A program made the position numbers and the translations under genes. The notes under the pieces were generated by a model. That model did not search any database. It saw only the letters and a list, made by a program, of their open reading frames with translations, and had not been told where the DNA came from. From a virus, in IMG/VR virus record IMGVR_UViG_3300032246_001368, positions 47,584 to 111,583 of that record: a stretch of DNA of 64,000 bases. One strand, 5' to 3'. Numbering within the stretch: the stretch's first letter is position 1; every line of letters starts with the position of its first letter. This document shows, one piece after another, positions 9,546 to 59,490 of the stretch.

Positions 9546-10184
9546 ATGGCTACAAATAATTTAACATTTGAAATTTTTAATGAAGACTACGTAGGTGATT
9601 CTATAGGCAAACATAATTATAATGCTTTATCACTTGACACGTCAATTTGTAATTTGTCGTCTATGTTATTTAATGATGCGGATAACATATATGTTACGCT
9701 TGCAGATTTAGCATATAATATTAACAAATTTAATCAAACCGCTAGTTTGTTTGTTGATCCTTCACGATATGATACATGTTCTTCTGCTACATCATTATTA
9801 AGTTCTTACTGGAGCCAACATGAATTTTCTGTTCATTATCCTATTAACATATCCACTATTAATAATTTAGCAATCGACGCTCCGGTGTATAATTCCCCAG
9901 AAGCAAGATTAACCTCTTTAGCACTTGCCTATCTTAATGCTAATTTCAAGGCGAATGTCTTTACACAAGGGACCAAAGCTAATGTCATATTCTTTTTGTA
10001 TAATGTAGGTATTAATCCATCAGATCCAAATAATTTAATGCATGTATCATTCTCCCCAGAAATATCATTTGTTAACAGGTATATGTCAGCGTCTTATAAA
10101 AGGGATGACGCCCATTTTACAAATGGTAAAATAATAAAATTCGTGCAAACCAATGGTACCTGGGTTAAAATAAGTTCATTATAA
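9546..10184 (+). CDS. Virion protein, paralogue 3 of triplet
   Basis: VGDSIGKHNYN ... YW...SVHYP ... YLNANF. Confidence 0.6.
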   Translation: MATNNLTFEIFNEDYVGDSIGKHNYNALSLDTSICNLSSMLFNDADNIYVTLADLAYNINKFNQTASLFVDPSRYDTCSSATSLLSSYWSQHEFSVHYPINISTINNLAIDAPVYNSPEARLTSLALAYLNANFKANVFTQGTKANVIFFLYNVGINPSDPNNLMHVSFSPEISFVNRYMSASYKRDDAHFTNGKIIKFVQTNGTWVKISSL

Positions 10185-31364: not shown

Positions 31365-31622
31365 ATGACAATAGAAGAAGAGAATCAATATTACAAAACA
31401 TTAATACAAGAAGTATCAGACGCTATGGACCGGAATGCTTTGATCTTGTATAAGTGGGAAAAGGTTGCGGAGAAATTAGTTAACCACTTAGAACCTTATC
31501 TTAAGTGGCCTGAGGATAAAGAAATGCTTGAAGTATATTCTACGCTTAAAGATTACCACTCTTTAAAGAATGAGATAAGAACAAATAAATCTAAAAGCTC
31601 GTTGACATATCCCGAAAAATAA
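31365..31622 (+). CDS. Hypothetical protein
   Basis: Leaderless-type promoter upstream. Confidence 0.55.
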   Translation: MTIEEENQYYKTLIQEVSDAMDRNALILYKWEKVAEKLVNHLEPYLKWPEDKEMLEVYSTLKDYHSLKNEIRTNKSKSSLTYPEK

Positions 31623-31630
31623 TATACTAT
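31602..31630 (+). promoter_or_regulatory. Sigma70-like promoter of ncRNA operon
   Basis: TTGACA-17 nt-TACTAT. Confidence 0.7.
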
Positions 31631-31642
31631 AAATAAATAAGA

Positions 31643-31656
31643 ATTGATCTTTGATA
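31643..31656 (+). promoter_or_regulatory. boxA-like antitermination site
   Basis: ATTGATCTTTGATA, identical to the 14-mer upstream of tmRNA; resembles rrn boxA (TG(C/A)TCTTT). Confidence 0.6.
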
Positions 31657-31672
31657 GTACATTTTAAAAATT

Positions 31673-31781
31673 TGACCGTTCGCAGGCTCGATCGAAAGAG
31701 CTACCGTACGTGTGCGTGACTAGGTTGCTCTGAAAGGCCTTCATCAACCGGTGCACAAGGATGGATTAACCACCCCGGTCA
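31673..31781 (+). ncRNA. Unidentified structured RNA, element 1
   Basis: Closing stem TGACCG/CGGTCA; inner stems GGCTC/GAGCT, GTGC/GCAC, GGTTG/CAACC; GC-rich island. Confidence 0.55.
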
Positions 31782-31790
31782 TAATAATTT

Positions 31791-31887
31791 GATTACTGCG
31801 TACAGTCCTCGGTAGTAGCAATACTAGTCCGAAGCCGCGGGTAAGGGCGAAAGCCTTAGACTTCCTAGCTCCGATAGGCCAGTAATC
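31791..31887 (+). ncRNA. Unidentified structured RNA, motif A copy 1
   Basis: GATTACTG/CAGTAATC closing stem, GCAA and GAAA tetraloop hairpins; homologue at 59234-59307. Confidence 0.7.
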
Positions 31888-31898
31888 ATTAAATTAAT

Positions 31899-32286
31899 AC
31901 TCTCTAGTTTTAGGAATTATTCTAGAGAGGGGTAAGGACGAGTTGCTTGTTGGTATGTTAGTAGTCCTTATTCAAGTTAGGGGAGCCAAAAACCTATGGT
32001 AAGCTTTGATCCTAGCATATTGATTAAACACAAGCTGGACGGTTAGTATAGGCTCCACGCCCGAACGTCGTTAAGGAAAGAACAAAATCCGGAATAAAAT
32101 CTTTCAATACCAATAATTTCTTTAGTAATGCTACCATCGCACGTCTCAAGTCGTGTATAAGTCGGGTCGGACCGTAAAAATGCAGAGAGAATAAAGAGAA
32201 AAAGCAGCGCCCTGTGTAGGTTGCAAACTACCGAATGAGTTGGAGTAACCCCTCCCACCATGTAGTCCTCGACGGAGGAGCAGGGA
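31899..32286 (+). ncRNA. Unidentified structured RNA(s), elements 3-4
   Basis: Stems CTCTCTAG/CTAGAGAG, TAAGGAC/GTCCTTA, GGAGCC/GGCTCC, GCACG/CGTGT, and CCCTG/CAGGG enclosing three hairpins; no credible ORF. Confidence 0.5.
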
Positions 32287-37093: not shown

Positions 37094-37513
37094 ATGAACA
37101 ATGAATTAGAAATGATTATTGCGGCTCGGGACCTAGCATTTGAGTCGCATAAGGGACAGTTTAGAAGGGACGGTAAGACTCCTTATTTCAATCATGTGGC
37201 GGCGGTATCTCTTATGGTTGATCCTAACAACCCAGATAATGTTACCACGGCCTTCCTCCATGACATCTTGGAAGATACCCCTTTGTCCTCTAAGACCCTG
37301 AGCGACATGGGATTCCCAGACCGTATTGTAGAGGCCGTATTGCTTCTCACCCGGTTCGATCATGATCCTTATATGGACTATCTTAAGGGTATTAAGGCCA
37401 ATCCTATTGCCCGTGCCGTTAAGATTGCCGACATGAAACACAATCTCAGCTGTGATCCTACCGTCAAACAAAAGGAAAAGTATGCCAAAGGCCTCGAATA
37501 TCTCCAGTCCTAA
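37094..37513 (+). CDS. HD-domain (p)ppGpp hydrolase-like protein (small alarmone hydrolase/Mesh1-like)
   Basis: HKGQFRRDGKTPYFNH, LHDILEDT, VKIADMKHN. Confidence 0.8.
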   Translation: MNNELEMIIAARDLAFESHKGQFRRDGKTPYFNHVAAVSLMVDPNNPDNVTTAFLHDILEDTPLSSKTLSDMGFPDRIVEAVLLLTRFDHDPYMDYLKGIKANPIARAVKIADMKHNLSCDPTVKQKEKYAKGLEYLQS

Positions 37514-42911: not shown

Positions 42912-42989
42912 GCCTCGGTAGTCCAATTGGCAGCAGACAAGCGACTTAAAATCGCTCCAGTGCGGGTTCGAATCCCGCCCGAGGTACCA
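42912..42989 (+). tRNA. tRNA-Leu(TAA), short variable loop
   Basis: Acceptor GCCTCGG/CCGAGGT-A-CCA; anticodon arm AGCGA-CTTAAAA-TCGCT; GGTTCGAATCC. Confidence 0.85.
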
Positions 42990-43369
42990 CTTTCAGATTG
43001 ACCTTTCCCACCAATTGCTTTAATATATAAACAATGAAACACCTCCTACACCTCCTTGGTTACACTCAACGTAAGCCTTCACTCCTCCTCATGCACATGT
43101 GTGACGTTACTCACAGCTCCTGGATACAGGATCTCTATCGTACCAACCGCATTAACGATTATCTTATTAAGTAAGAGTTGAACTATCCCACTAAACGGAG
43201 TATAATAATATTATGATCATTGAATTCACCCCTGGCAAGATGCCAAAGAGTAAAGAAGCTTTAAAGGATATTATCCTCGAGGCAGTCAAGAAGTCTTCAA
43301 CGAACCCTGAGACCGTTAATGCCGGCCGACAGTCCCAGGATAACAATACAAAGGCCGGCGTTCCTCATC

Positions 43370-43588
43370 ATGCAAACTAAAGTCACACTCACGGATCTAA
43401 TTCGTAACATCTTAAATACAGAACAGGAACTATCCGTAAAAGATATCCTTACTAAAGTACAAGAGACTATTGCAGGAGAGCAACTAACCATACAGGCCGA
43501 CTACCGTAAGGTATATCGTCACCTGCGTACGTGTGCGACTAAGACGGCACGAGGTCAGTTCTCCCTCACCGAGACCTCTGCCTCCTAA
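43370..43588 (+). CDS. Winged-helix-like small protein
   Basis: LTDLIRNIL...ELSVKDIL...VYRHL...RGQFSL. Confidence 0.5.
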   Translation: MQTKVTLTDLIRNILNTEQELSVKDILTKVQETIAGEQLTIQADYRKVYRHLRTCATKTARGQFSLTETSAS

Positions 43589-43611
43589 AGGTAAGTCTCG
43601 GCAACAATACT

Positions 43612-43705
43612 ACTGGGTTAATGTAATTGGAAGCATCGACAGACTTATAATCTGTGTTCGCCAGATTAGCGACGAGCGAGGGTTCGATTCCCTCACCCAG
43701 TACCA
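43612..43705 (+). tRNA. tRNA with TAT anticodon (Ile) and long variable arm
   Basis: ACTGGGT/ACCCAGT-A-CCA; ACAGA-CTTATAA-TCTGT; variable-arm stem TCGC/GCGA; GAGGG-TTCGATT-CCCTC. Confidence 0.8.
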
Positions 43706-43726
43706 ATTTCAAAACAAACAAATTAT

Positions 43727-43900
43727 ATGGAAGATACAAACACATCAAAAGAAGCAAAGGTATTCCAACTCTGCCAAGACCTGGAAGACATGAGAGACCG
43801 TAAGAAGGCATCTGGTAAAGCCTTTAACGATGAGATCAAGCGTATTCAAGCTGAGATCAAGGATCTAATTGATCCAACGGAACCTGAAGAGGCTCCTTAG
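43727..43900 (+). CDS. Small coiled-coil protein (57 aa, not in ORF track)
   Basis: MEDTNTSKEAKVFQL...IQAEIKDLI; fills gap between tRNAs. Confidence 0.55.
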   Translation: MEDTNTSKEAKVFQLCQDLEDMRDRKKASGKAFNDEIKRIQAEIKDLIDPTEPEEAP

Positions 43901-43907
43901 TAATTTC

Positions 43908-43980
43908 GCCCTTGTAGCTCAATGGTCAGAGCAGATCCCTCATAAGGATTAGGTTGGGGGTTCGAATCCCTCCGGGGGCA
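43908..43980 (+). tRNA. tRNA-Met/Ile2 (CAT), no encoded CCA
   Basis: GCCCTTG/CGGGGGC-A; GATCC-CTCATAA-GGATT. Confidence 0.85.
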
Positions 43981-43987
43981 CACTTTA

Positions 43988-44017
43988 GCATCTATCGTTC
44001 AACGGATAGGACAGGGC
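43988..44017 (+). pseudogene. 5' half of interrupted tRNA (probably Arg)
   Basis: GCATCTA acceptor strand + D arm GTTC-AACGGATA-GGAC + GGGC; pairs with 3' half at 44633-44669. Confidence 0.75.
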
Positions 44018-44027
44018 AAGACTTTAC

Positions 44028-44101
44028 GTGCCAGTAGCTCAATCGGATAGAGCAACGGTTTTCTAAACCGTAGGTTGCAGGATCGTACCCTGCCTGGCAC
44101 A
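44028..44101 (+). tRNA. tRNA-Arg(TCT), atypical T loop, no encoded CCA
   Basis: GTGCCAG/CTGGCAC-A; ACGGT-TTTCTAA-ACCGT; T loop ATCGTAC. Confidence 0.8.
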
Positions 44102-44590
44102 GTCTTTCAATAATCCATTATCAAACTCCCAATGGCAATTAGGACATAAAGGAATAACATTCTCTATAGAATTAATATCCCTCAATAAAGCATCGTCATT
44201 GAAAGAAGATATAGGTTTGATATGACAAAGTTCTATGTGCTTATCATACCCACAATTCAAACATTTATTACCTAAAAGAGGTTTTAACCAAGACCTAGCC
44301 ATTCCTCTTATATGTACATATATAGATGATTGATGCAAACCTTTTAAACATTCTCTAGATTTATAGTATCCCAATGTTCTGTCTTTATAAGATTCTTTCA
44401 AAGAACTTTTATATTCTTCCCAATGTTCTTTACATAAACTAGAATTCCATTTATGAGTAATGTTATCACATCTAGTACATTTCCTTTTACGAATTCGTTT
44501 GGGTGATGTCTTATTGGTATAAGTAGCCGCACAAGACCTTGAACAGAATTTTGGATTTGAAGTTTCTTCTTGACAATTAACACATTTCAT
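44063..44590 (-). CDS. HNH endonuclease with N-terminal Zn-finger
   Basis: KFCSRSCAATYTN; CLNCGYDKHIELCHIKP ... NVIPLCPNCHWEFD; start reassigned to MKCVNC after TAAGTA. Confidence 0.85.
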   Translation of the reverse strand: MKCVNCQEETSNPKFCSRSCAATYTNKTSPKRIRKRKCTRCDNITHKWNSSLCKEHWEEYKSSLKESYKDRTLGYYKSRECLKGLHQSSIYVHIRGMARSWLKPLLGNKCLNCGYDKHIELCHIKPISSFNDDALLRDINSIENVIPLCPNCHWEFDNGLLKDCARQGTILQPTV

Positions 44591-44632
44591 ATAATAATAC
44601 TTACCGTAATAGAACATATTATTTAAAACAAA

Positions 44633-44669
44633 AGCCTCAATGTTGGTTCGATTCCAACTAGATGCACCA
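44633..44669 (+). pseudogene. 3' half of interrupted tRNA
   Basis: AGCCT-CAAT-GTTGG-TTCGATT-CCAAC-TAGATGC-A-CCA. Confidence 0.75.
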
Positions 44670-44673
44670 TTTT

Positions 44674-44745
44674 GGAATCGTAGCTCAACGGTAGAGCAGT
44701 AGACTTTTAATCTATTGGCTATGGGTTCGAGTCCCATCGATTCCA
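44674..44745 (+). tRNA. tRNA-Lys(TTT), no encoded CCA
   Basis: GGAATCG/CGATTCC-A; GTAGA-CTTTTAA-TCTAT. Confidence 0.9.
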
Positions 44746-44826
44746 CTTTAATACAGAGGCATAAAATAATAACGCCGGCCTCTCTATTAACGTGAATTTT
44801 CCCACGTAAAGATTTATACTTATAGT

Positions 44827-56044: not shown

Positions 56045-57757
56045 ATGCCTAATAACTATACACTGAGTAACAACCTTTCTGCTACAATAAATCCTAATGT
56101 AGCGTACTGTAATGCTTGGGTTCCAGTAGAAAATAATGCGGGAAGACTTCTTTACGCAGAGGCTTCATATATTACTAATTTTTCTGATCTTAATATTAGT
56201 CTTTCATCGAGTAATTTAGATATCGGTGCGGTTCATATTATAGATAAAGACACTGGATTAGCAGCAACTATAGCCGATGTTGGTATTGGTGTTGGAGCCA
56301 TGAGAGTTCTTTCACAGGATTTGGAACCATATCATGACACTATTTCAATAGGAGACACAAACGGAAAACTTGCATATGTTACAGCAAGTGCTTTGAACGT
56401 TTTTAATACAAATCCAGTATCTTCAATTACGGTTAGGAATCCAGTTACAGCAGTTAGTATTTTAAATCCTGTAAGCTCTTTTACTCTTTTAAATTCATCA
56501 ATAGAAATATCAAATGATATTGGTAATCCTGTTCCTGTTAATGTTACAAATACAATATTAACAGCACCAGCCCCAACTCAACTTGATGCCTTTGGTCGTT
56601 TAAGAGTTTCTACACCACTTACTTTATTTGATTCTTCTCATCGTTATAGAGACAATAATCTTTGGTCATCACTAACAGCCGTTGGTGGATCTTATACATT
56701 TAACCAAAATCAAGGATTAGTTGATTTAACAGTTAATGCATTATCTGGTTCTTCGGTTATCAGAGAAACTACAAAAGTGTTTTCCTATCAACCAGGTAAA
56801 AGTTTATTAGTTCTAAATACATTTGTATTTGCCTCTTCTGCTACAAATTTAAGACAAAGAGTTGGTTATTATGGTCGAGATAACGGAATTTATTTTCAAT
56901 TAGATGATAATGTTTTAAGCTTTGTAGAGAGATCGTTAGTTACAGGATCAACTCAAGAAACAATTGTTCCAAGATCTTCTTGGAATGGAGATAAACTTGA
57001 TGGAACAGGTGCTTCGGGGTTGACTCTTGATATAACAAAAGCACAAATCCTTTGGATGGATATTGAATGGTTGGGTCTTGGTTCTGTTAGAGTTGGTTTT
57101 ATAATCAATGGTCAATATATTGTTTGTCACACCTTCAATCATGCAAACCTAATTGCATCAACATATATAACAACAGCATCTCTACCTCTGAGATATGAAA
57201 TCACAAATAAAAATGCTACGAGTGGATCTAAAACCATGAAGCAAGTATGTTCTTCTGTAATCTCAGAAGGTGGTTACGAATTAAGAGGATTGCAACAGGC
57301 AATAGGTTTACCAGTAACAGATCCATTAAATCTCCCAACAGCAGGAACATTTTATCCGATAATTTCGTTAAGATTAAAATCAGATCGTTTGGATGGTATA
57401 GTAATCTTAACTGCATTATCAATATTAGGATTAGGAGATTCTACTTATAATTGGCAAGTTAGAGCATCTGGAACTACTAGTGGAGGTTCTTGGGTAAGTG
57501 CTGGTACTGATAATTCAGTTGAATATAATATCTCTGGTACATCTATAACTGGTGGAAGAGTTTTAGCAAGTGGGTACTTTGATAGTAGTAAGAATAATGT
57601 TGGATCAATAGATATTCTTAAAGAAGCATTATTTAAATTTCAGTTAGAAAGAAACGGATTGACAAGTGCTTCTTATGAATTATCTGTTGTTGCCACTTGT
57701 GCAGCTGCTAATAAGACTGTTCTTGCTTCAATGGATTGGGAAGAGATCAGTAGGTAG
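56045..57757 (+). CDS. Virion structural protein (DAFGRLRVS family)
   Basis: QLDAFGRLRVSTPLTLFDS, YQPGKS, DIEWLGLGSVRVGF, SMDWEE. Confidence 0.7.
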   Translation: MPNNYTLSNNLSATINPNVAYCNAWVPVENNAGRLLYAEASYITNFSDLNISLSSSNLDIGAVHIIDKDTGLAATIADVGIGVGAMRVLSQDLEPYHDTISIGDTNGKLAYVTASALNVFNTNPVSSITVRNPVTAVSILNPVSSFTLLNSSIEISNDIGNPVPVNVTNTILTAPAPTQLDAFGRLRVSTPLTLFDSSHRYRDNNLWSSLTAVGGSYTFNQNQGLVDLTVNALSGSSVIRETTKVFSYQPGKSLLVLNTFVFASSATNLRQRVGYYGRDNGIYFQLDDNVLSFVERSLVTGSTQETIVPRSSWNGDKLDGTGASGLTLDITKAQILWMDIEWLGLGSVRVGFIINGQYIVCHTFNHANLIASTYITTASLPLRYEITNKNATSGSKTMKQVCSSVISEGGYELRGLQQAIGLPVTDPLNLPTAGTFYPIISLRLKSDRLDGIVILTALSILGLGDSTYNWQVRASGTTSGGSWVSAGTDNSVEYNISGTSITGGRVLASGYFDSSKNNVGSIDILKEALFKFQLERNGLTSASYELSVVATCAAANKTVLASMDWEEISR

Positions 57758-58760: not shown

Positions 58761-58774
58761 ATTGATCTTTGATA
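58761..58774 (+). promoter_or_regulatory. boxA-like site upstream of tmRNA
   Basis: ATTGATCTTTGATA, same as 31643-31656. Confidence 0.6.
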
Positions 58775-58783
58775 AATAATTTT

Positions 58784-59224
58784 GGGGGCGTACTGGCTTC
58801 GACTTATAATTGAAGTTTGTATTGCATGCAGTAGTTGATCTGTGGCTACTTTAAAACGGATTAAAAAACTAAATGCAAAAGTTATTACTAATGCAGTTAA
58901 GTCAGTCAAGTCATTCTTGACAAATGCTGCTGAGTCCATGTTCGCTTGCGAAGATGAGCTCTGCCTCATGGCTGCTTGACAATAAAAGAGGATCCTATTA
59001 AATCTTTTATTACATAATAGGTTAAGAAGTACTTGTGATTCTTAGGCAAATGAGAGCAAGGGGTGGTATGTGGTCCTTATTCACACATACAGGTAGGACT
59101 CTAAACATAGATAGGTTGGCGACACCTTGTTACCTTTAGTCAACGAAAGTACAAAGTCGTTCTAAGCATGTAGAAGTATAAATAGAACATTATAAACACA
59201 GGGGTTCGACTCCCCTCGCCTCCT
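58784..59224 (+). ncRNA. ssrA: tmRNA
   Basis: 5' GGGGGCGTACTGGCTTCGAC; 3' AGGGG-TTCGACT-CCCCT-CGCCTCC with G3:U pair; tag ORF 58875-58979 ending ...LMAA*. Confidence 0.9.
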
Positions 59225-59233
59225 CTTTACTTT

Positions 59234-59307
59234 GATTACTGCGTTTATCATCCGAGGTAATGCTCGGTCGCGGGTAACGATTCCAGTAAGCCGCCCGGCC
59301 AGTAATC
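59234..59307 (+). ncRNA. Unidentified structured RNA, motif A copy 2
   Basis: GATTACTGCGT ... CCGAG/CTCGG hairpin ... CGCGGGTAA ... TTCC ... GGCCAGTAATC shared with 31791-31887. Confidence 0.7.
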
Positions 59308-59490
59308 TTCAATTTAATAGAACTCGGTGTATCCCTCTCCAAGACTGTTCGAAAGGTCTTGTGATGGTTCTCGGGTCGTCGTAGGTCATAACAAAACTAG
59401 AACATAATTCTGGACGCTGAAGGTTTTTAGGACAAAAAGACTTACATATTTTTTAGTTGATTTATTATAACTTTTATATATTATAAATGG

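Follow-up and report, generated by a model that had tools for sequence, protein, structure and literature searches.

Phage tRNA regions have long been known for small stable RNAs to which no job is assigned. The tRNA operon of phage T4 encodes two of them, 'species 1' and 'species 2' (rnaC and rnaD), which are co-transcribed with the tRNAs and cut by host RNases. Phages also encode large RNAs with optional domains, such as GOLLD and ROOL, and a tRNA-like minihelix with a U at position -1 and a G1-C pair resembles the substrates of RNase P. Weinberg et al. 2015 are said to have found ribozyme classes through their neighbourhood to known ones.

Several described RNAs come close to the locus studied here in position or architecture. 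The theta ribozymes are minimal HDV-like ribozymes that lie beside phage tRNA genes, at most 5 nt from the tRNA end (PMC10879173). They share with the other HDV-like ribozymes a nested double pseudoknot with the strand order P1-P2-P3-P3'-P1'-P4-P4'-P2' and self-cleavage by a catalytic cytosine in J4/2 (PMC10879173). The hatchet ribozyme is built of helices P1-P4 and cleaves at the base of P1; its conserved bases lie in the linker joining P1 to P2 and in an internal bulge between P2 and P3 (PMC4604424). The manA (RF01745) and wcaG (RF01761) RNA motifs of T4-like cyanophages mostly occupy 5' UTR-like positions (PMC2864571). The motif described below is a small folded RNA of a new, uncatalogued family, with members ranging from 74 to about 140 nt. 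While the family itself is uncatalogued, an orphan stable RNA in a phage tRNA or tmRNA operon has precedents.

Two copies of the motif in a T4-like phage

The window, that is, the whole stretch of 64,000 nt that was analysed, forms the 3' portion of a viral record of 111.6 kb with an estimated completeness of 52% (IMG/VR IMGVR_UViG_3300032246_001368). Its virion protein (56045-57757) shows 65-67% identity to proteins of T4-like cyanophages, e.g. those of S-RIM and S-WAM. A first-pass annotation of the window had marked a motif occurring twice, each time in a boxA-led unit and about 10 nt after a closed RNA or a tmRNA lacking CCA. Direct reading confirmed the coordinates and the shared blocks of both copies, which lie on the plus strand (Table 1). 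Toward the 5' end these blocks are UU, an 8-nt strand followed by CGU, and a central 8-nt block; toward the 3' end they are a U with CC, a loop CCG, GG-C and the complement of the first 8-nt strand. A pattern of two blocks, the P1 5' strand with CGT and, after a gap, the 9-nt junction block, has two exact matches in the window, as against none in 100 dinucleotide shuffles. With a covariance model the copies reach 119.5 and 65.8 bits, and no other match turns up anywhere in the 111.6-kb record.

The annotated setting was equally borne out. The closed RNA upstream of copy 1 (element 1) ends at 31780, and the acceptor stem of the tmRNA before copy 2 ends at 59223, with the motif beginning 10 nt later in either case, and an identical boxA-like 13-mer opens both units (31644 and 58762). 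A sigma-70-type promoter (31602-31630, 10/12) precedes the first boxA-led unit, and no promoter-like site was found adjoining the motif. Downstream of copy 2 lies another closed, hairpin-rich module without a family match (59321-59378), followed by a block GGAC...AAAAAGACTTACAT (59395-59450) that is also present upstream of tRNA-Met in L001 and likewise matches no family.

Table 1. Positions of the two motif copies, their predicted structural parts and the adjoining units in the window
Feature	Position	Strand	Basis or remark
Copy 1 of the motif	31791-31887	+	97 nt; direct reading
Copy 1, two invariant U 5' of P1	31789..31790	+	UU in 8/8 members
Copy 1, P1 5' strand (8 nt), pairs with 31880-31887	31791..31798	+	Invariant in 8/8; pairs predicted
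Copy 1, outer junction CGU+NN	31799..31803	+	CGU invariant, NN variable
Copy 1, Pa 5' strand, pairs with 31859-31862	31804..31807	+	Compensatory at 3/4 pairs
Copy 1, P2 long form (4 bp + 2-nt bulge + 5 bp, GNRA loop)	31809..31832	+	Predicted fold
Copy 1, invariant 8-nt strand; C38-G41 may pair with loop 31870-31873	31836..31843	+	Invariant in all members
Copy 1, optional P3 (5 bp, GAAA loop)	31844..31857	+	Absent in short forms
Copy 1, Pa 3' strand	31859..31862	+	Structural alignment
Copy 1, P4 (4 bp, 7-nt loop with CCG)	31864..31878	+	Inner pairs covary versus L019, L022
Copy 1, P1 3' strand	31880..31887	+	Direct reading, alignment
Copy 2 of the motif	59234-59307	+	74 nt; direct reading
Copy 2, UU + P1 5' strand, pairs with 59300-59307	59232..59241	+	Reading, alignment
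Copy 2, Pa 5' strand (3 bp), pairs with 59279-59281	59247..59249	+	Alignment
Copy 2, P2 short form (5 bp, 6-nt loop)	59252..59267	+	Predicted fold, alignment
Copy 2, invariant 8-nt strand; G70-G73 may pair with loop 59291-59294	59269..59276	+	MFE, alignment
Copy 2, Pa 3' strand	59279..59281	+	Alignment
Copy 2, P4 (one A.C mismatch, 8-nt loop)	59283..59298	+	Alignment
Copy 2, P1 3' strand	59300..59307	+	Reading, alignment
Promoter (sigma-70-like, 10/12) and boxA-like leader of the copy 1 array	31602..31656	+	Leader in relatives
Element 1, closed RNA 5' of copy 1	31676..31780	+	With and without motif in relatives
boxA-like leader and tmRNA 5' of copy 2	58762..59224	+	Acceptor stem ends at 59223

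A family of eight members in one phage clade

Members were sought by DNA-pattern scans of viral, metagenome and genome contigs followed by the covariance model; as the patterns demanded exact core strings, distant members could be missed. This recovered six members in addition to the two window copies, namely L001 (= L023), L019, L022, L031, L050 (= L051) and L036 (= L040). All eight distinct members come from uncultured phage contigs, and each lies in a contig with the same kind of RNA array. The first-pass annotation had proposed such a covariance-model search for homologues with compensatory changes, and the six additional members do bring them, in Pa, P3 and P4 (see below).

The pattern scans of viral, metagenome and genome contigs yielded no member outside a single phage clade and none with an altered P1. 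The genome-contig scan, covering 596 Gb of prokaryote genomes, gave 46 matches, about as many as expected by chance; the covariance model classed all of them as chance matches, the best reaching 16.8 bits. When ten related phage records were searched with the covariance model, one further copy was found, in G005, with none in two near-complete relatives of 199 kb (91%) and 140 kb (100%, with terminal repeats) or in seven further partial records. The members are drawn from a few uncultured T4-like phages of one narrow group, and part of the invariance of the core could be due to shared ancestry.

A gathering-threshold scan of the window with Rfam 15 (4227 models) returned only the tmRNA and five tRNAs. 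Relaxing the threshold to E<=10, with 97-701 nt around each copy as well as the motif alone as queries, gave nothing on the plus strand of the motif. A match to an existing Rfam family, which the annotation had named as the result that would count against novelty, was therefore found at neither level. Similarly, blastn (word 11) with both regions against 50,697 phage records produced no match. Together with the covariation and about 41 invariant bases across eight members, this upholds the earlier proposal of a new non-coding RNA family in which variable peripheral helices surround a conserved core.

Nested helices around an invariant core

MAFFT misaligned the short and long forms, so that the RNAalifold consensus drawn from it was misleading, and cmsearch did not align the short forms consistently either; for this reason a regex-anchored, scripted structural alignment was used. 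The fold predicted from it, well supported for such a small set, consists of nested helices, with P1 enclosing Pa and P4, and Pa in turn enclosing P2 and P3, and of one pseudoknot between a loop and a junction.

P1 has the same 8 bp in all eight members, with a ninth possible in seven of them, and is directly preceded by UU in each, though the remaining linker varies. The outer junction is a three-way junction of P1, Pa and P4 with an invariant CGU and two variable bases. Pa, a helix of 3-4 bp, had been overlooked: the bases taken for a 7-nt spacer, along with those before the shared TTCC, form its two strands, with compensatory changes at three pairs in the structural alignment. The first pair of Pa is A-U in every member, the second is G-C in the long forms and U-A in the short ones, the third is U-A and C-G, respectively, and the fourth is either C-G or U-A within the long forms and A.C in the short forms.

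The inner junction bears P2, the optional P3 and the invariant 8-nt strand. P2 is a bulged hairpin of 4+5 bp with a GNRA loop in the long forms and an unrelated 5-bp hairpin in the short forms, which amounts to a wholesale exchange. P3 starts right after the 8-nt strand and is followed by one invariant A. The annotation was right that a GAAA-capped hairpin is optional here, but the feature is more general, being an insertion point that holds 0 nt in three members, 14 in two, 24 in two (L031 and L050) and 54 in one (L036); copy 1 and L001, both with 14 nt, differ by one compensatory pair in the same alignment rows. The annotated TTCC block is indeed present in both copies but is not a single unit, comprising a junction U and the 5' strand of P4. 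The outer two pairs of P4 are invariant C-G pairs, whereas the inner two are U-A/A-U in the long forms and G-C/G-C in L019 and L022 (two compensatory pairs in the structural alignment), with copy 2 having one A.C. A single C after P4 leads into the 3' strand of P1.

The P4 loops differ except for a retained CCG; together with CGG in the invariant 8-nt strand it can form a predicted pseudoknot of 4 bp. Its fourth pair is a U.G from one side in the long forms and comes from the other side in the short forms (C-G; U.G in L022). This CCG/CGG pseudoknot is a weak prediction, since the three central pairs never vary. Compared with the unconstrained MFE, the nested model differs by 1.3-3.6 kcal/mol in four long forms and by 7.7 in the fifth, L036; in the short forms the pseudoknot helix is present in the free MFE itself. 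A competing nested model, in which the junction strand pairs with the 3' part of P4, was discarded: it leaves the double changes in P4 unexplained and has a G.A mismatch in all long forms.

The invariant core comprises about 41 positions in all members, while flanking modules of the same arrays are only 50-91% identical. At a background identity of about 72%, the chance of 41 sites all agreeing in one pair is ~1e-6 by our own arithmetic. The core is therefore strongly constrained, while the inner pairs of Pa and P4, like the hairpins P2 and P3, are free to vary as long as pairing holds.

The same data bear on the possibility that the motif is a DNA-level element, such as a miniature mobile element or a protein-binding or recombination site, with an incidental RNA fold. 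The strands of P1 do amount to a terminal inverted repeat of 8-9 bp, and the motif is present in some arrays and absent from others, leaving clean empty sites, with A/T-rich flanks that are alike on both sides; however, each genome has no more than two copies, these are confined to module boundaries of RNA operons and invariably follow the direction of transcription, and no consistent target-site duplication was found. Further, the internal compensatory changes and the G.U pairs, those in P3 and the pseudoknot being valid for the plus-strand RNA alone, fit RNA rather than DNA, and the optional internal hairpin ranges from 0 to 54 nt. We hence regard a DNA-level element as very improbable.

An optional cassette in stable-RNA arrays

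Related arrays were fetched via the leader and via the terminal twister-like element. The 18-nt leader of the copy 1 array recurs in 19 viral-contig loci. The 5' part of the array plan has this leader, sometimes a tRNA-Met, and a first closed RNA belonging to one of at least three unrelated types; the 3' part has a conserved module 3, sometimes a tRNA-like insert, the twister-like element and a terminal hairpin. Each module is closed by its own terminal helix, and A/U-rich linkers of 8-15 nt separate them. The first-slot RNAs, exemplified by 31676-31780 (type A), L001:~900-1021 (type B) and L042:~9595-9670 (the third type), have no Rfam match, and type A can carry an optional internal hairpin of ~24 nt (L022 and L036). 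The sequence between module 3 and the twister-like element is tRNA-shaped in L019 (minus strand, ~255-150) and L022 (minus strand, ~1150-1045), with D-arm-like and T-arm-like blocks and a long internal insert; ARAGORN makes no call on it.

In arrays of both type A and type B the motif is placed after the first RNA and before module 3, and in the window it additionally follows the tmRNA (copy 2). The linker from the upstream closed RNA to P1 is 8-15 nt in all eight members. Other type A, other type B and the third-type arrays lack the motif, and in them a single A/U-rich linker replaces the linker-motif-linker segment with a clean junction. For instance, L033 has an element 1 identical to that of the window and no motif. 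The slot after element 1 is occupied by short forms in some arrays and by long forms in others. The motif is an optional cassette that is shuffled as a whole unit, and the arrays evolve by shuffling entire RNA modules at the A/U-rich linkers.

The occurrence of element 1 in sister arrays and of the tmRNA gene in eight relatives' loci, in both cases without the motif, indicates that the motif is not needed to mature the upstream RNA; this leaves the 3'-processing element that the first-pass annotation had considered without support. As most relatives make the neighbouring RNAs without the motif, no need for processing is evident, and the fact that its neighbours can do without the cassette speaks against an obligatory processing role.

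The array organisation also allows the motif to be conceived as a portable tertiary domain of a larger RNA, i.e. the ~620-nt array or the tmRNA, for example as a docking or multimerisation module, much as GOLLD and ROOL have optional domains. No terminator or promoter was found between the modules, as befits such a domain. Nevertheless, the modules are closed by their own helices and joined by A/U-rich linkers like embedded tRNAs, they recombine independently, and the motif follows two unrelated RNAs, all of which makes this reading quite improbable.

Possible self-cleavage and comparison with known RNAs

The element at the end of the copy 1 array (32122-32194) resembles the twister type P1 model (21.9 bits, E 0.049, below gathering). 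Strands conserved in this element are found again at 17 viral-contig loci, and compensatory changes distinguish one of its stems in the window from that in L001. Such a neighbour raises the possibility that the motif is itself a new class of self-cleaving ribozyme, cutting at or near its own 5' edge, at the UU/G step, and separating itself from the upstream RNA. The motif is suitably small, with more than one junction and a predicted pseudoknot; its invariant bases lie mostly in the junctions and its peripheral stems are variable or optional. The twister-like element, which is kept in relatives, is part of the same non-coding array, two invariant U precede P1 within otherwise variable linkers, and the sole tmRNA upstream of the motif is without an encoded ACCA. 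Set against these features, no Rfam ribozyme family matches at E<=10, the strand order is not HDV-like and the hammerhead core is absent. The family is also very rare and restricted to a clade, unlike the known self-cleaving classes, and the neighbouring RNAs are made without the motif in most relatives. On balance, we consider a new self-cleaving class unlikely. The wider notion of a self-cleaving or otherwise catalytic RNA that serves as a portable end-forming unit, and that together with the twister would give 5'-OH and cyclic-phosphate ends to the intervening RNA, likewise seems improbable.

Comparison with individual ribozymes points the same way. The motif resembles the theta ribozymes in being a small structured phage RNA just 3' of a tRNA-type RNA, and the first-pass annotation had drawn this positional analogy; it is not supported, since the gap is 8-15 nt in the eight members as opposed to at most 5 nt and the strand order differs from that of HDV-like ribozymes. 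An HDV-like or theta identity is rejected because the 5'-most and 3'-most strands of the motif pair with each other (P1) around all other helices, and there is no HDV match in Rfam. If P1 of the motif were equated with P2 of HDV, then P1 of HDV would fall in the A/U linker, and there is no complementary strand after the first hairpin. The strands of the outer junction (CGU and two nucleotides, U, and C) are not the CUGANGA/GAAA core of the hammerhead, whose three-way junction also has a single base at the cleavage site, and no hammerhead model matches. There is no match to the Rfam hatchet model at E<=10 either, and the nested junctions of the motif differ from the architecture described for hatchet. 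With twister type P1 (RF03160), the motif has in common that it is a small RNA with a pseudoknot and a module of the same array or operon. However, the two have no similarity in sequence or structure, the junction strands differ, the model does not match, and all arrays of this type contain the twister-like element, unlike the motif, which is optional.

Outside the ribozymes, manA and wcaG are comparable as orphan structured RNAs with conserved junction bases in T4-like phages related to this one, but their models do not match the motif at E<=10, and the motif sits between other stable RNAs. By gene organisation, the closest analogues are species 1 and species 2 of T4, being small stable RNAs of unassigned function; there is no sequence similarity to them by blastn of the 50,697 phage records, T4 perhaps being among these. 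The motif shares with tRNA-like phage RNAs a closed terminal helix, a first G-C pair, U at -1, a 12-bp stack of P1 and P4 and a setting among tRNA genes. An identity as a tRNA-like RNA is nevertheless rejected: the P4 loops are of 7 or 8 nt with only CCG common to both forms and no T-loop consensus, the 3' flank is AU(U/A) or UUC with neither CCA nor an alanine-type acceptor, and ARAGORN and the tRNA and tmRNA models make no call on the motif.

Two further identities were discarded. A TTG-started frame is open through the short forms; a coding role is rejected because the long forms keep the same invariant bases, yet reach a stop after 8 codons. Two blocks of the motif resemble what we take to be universal segments of 16S rRNA; these are 7-8-mers expected by chance, their order is not collinear, and no SSU model matches.

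A proposed role for the RNA

The array is organised as a tRNA operon, with closed modules, A/U linkers, true tRNAs (the tRNA-Met genes inside the same arrays) and reshuffling; for this reason we read the motif as an independent small stable RNA, made from boxA-led transcripts, that acts via its invariant core on a partner. We give this reading a probability of roughly 45%. We infer that the motif is transcribed, released at its linkers and active in trans on some partner, as follows. The motif would be transcribed as one bead of an untranslated, boxA-led stable-RNA operon that also holds tRNAs, tmRNA and other orphan RNAs and, in one type of array, would end in a terminal twister ribozyme. The host enzymes that process tRNA operons would cut the A/U-rich linkers on both sides to free the motif RNA. 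The freed RNA may then act in trans, with the core formed by P1, the junctions and the pseudoknot offering a specific binding site for a protein or a small ligand. On this reading the RNA would serve an accessory function for the phage and have no part in maturing the upstream RNA. The full invariance of the 8-bp P1, which is unusual for a purely structural helix, counts against the reading as an independent stable RNA.

A phyletic profile of candidate partner proteins (G000 and G005 versus G001, G002 and G004) returned only a shared accessory block, at 32.7-44 kb of the window, with no RNA-binding domain; the power of this comparison is low because the records are partial. Within the window, no target in trans complementary to the 5' strand of P1 or to the 8-nt strand was found beyond the motif. 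An ORF of 139 aa at 37094-37513 has a weak match to HD_4, a RelA/SpoT-type hydrolase domain (23.4 bits, below cutoff); it is also present in the motif-bearing G005 and absent from G001, G002 and G004.

The motif offers a well-defined case among the orphan RNAs of phages, having a compact fold, about 41 invariant bases, two natural size forms and a stem that tolerates insertions, with relatives that cleanly lack the cassette serving as natural 'knock-outs'. These properties make direct tests easy. Were the RNA catalytic, or a decoy for a host factor, it would provide a new tool and point to a new phage strategy; were it neither, it would be one more orphan RNA of a narrow phage clade.

The 3' ends of the upstream RNAs

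A further alternative is that the motif is a cis-acting 3' appendage, be it a structured trailer by which 3' maturation is protected or timed, or a site of entry for cleavage of the RNase P type. This would account for its constant position 8-15 nt downstream of a closed RNA, and the 8 bp of P1 with the 4 bp of P4 give the 12 bp of a tRNA acceptor/T stack. Additionally, U at -1, a first G-C pair and an A after the helix are seen in seven of the eight members, and the tmRNA upstream of copy 2 is without ACCA. On the other hand, element 1 with the same 3' end occurs without the motif (L033 and L034), as does the tmRNA in eight relatives' loci; the P4 loop has no conserved T-loop, CCA is absent, the tRNA model is unmatched, and the stack of P4 on P1 is broken by one extra base. 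We hence hold such an appendage to be a rather improbable explanation.

The tmRNA itself is recognised by Rfam with 99.7 bits, and after its acceptor stem it has T-CTT where A-CCA is expected. In the eight loci compared with window 59217-59233 (L001, L032, L033, L038, L041, L044, L046 and L053), the acceptor strand is followed by ACCA and then by tRNAs or a gene, never by the motif. Among these nine related loci, only the window tmRNA has a single U for ACCA, and it is also the sole one that precedes the motif. The coincidence of ACCA loss with the cassette hints at some link to the upstream 3' end and counts against the reading of the motif as an independent stable RNA.

Of the five tRNA genes in the window (42912-44746), those for Leu and Ile encode CCA and those for Met, Arg and Lys do not. 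Hence, a 3' processing that is independent of an encoded CCA probably operates on the latter three, and the window tmRNA therefore need not be dead. The trailers of several tRNAs and of the tmRNA start with a similar CUUU(A/C) string. The tag frame of the window tmRNA (58875-58995) appears unusually long, at about 35-39 codons, and by reading ends in ...MAA; the tags of the relatives' tmRNAs are long too and end in LAA.
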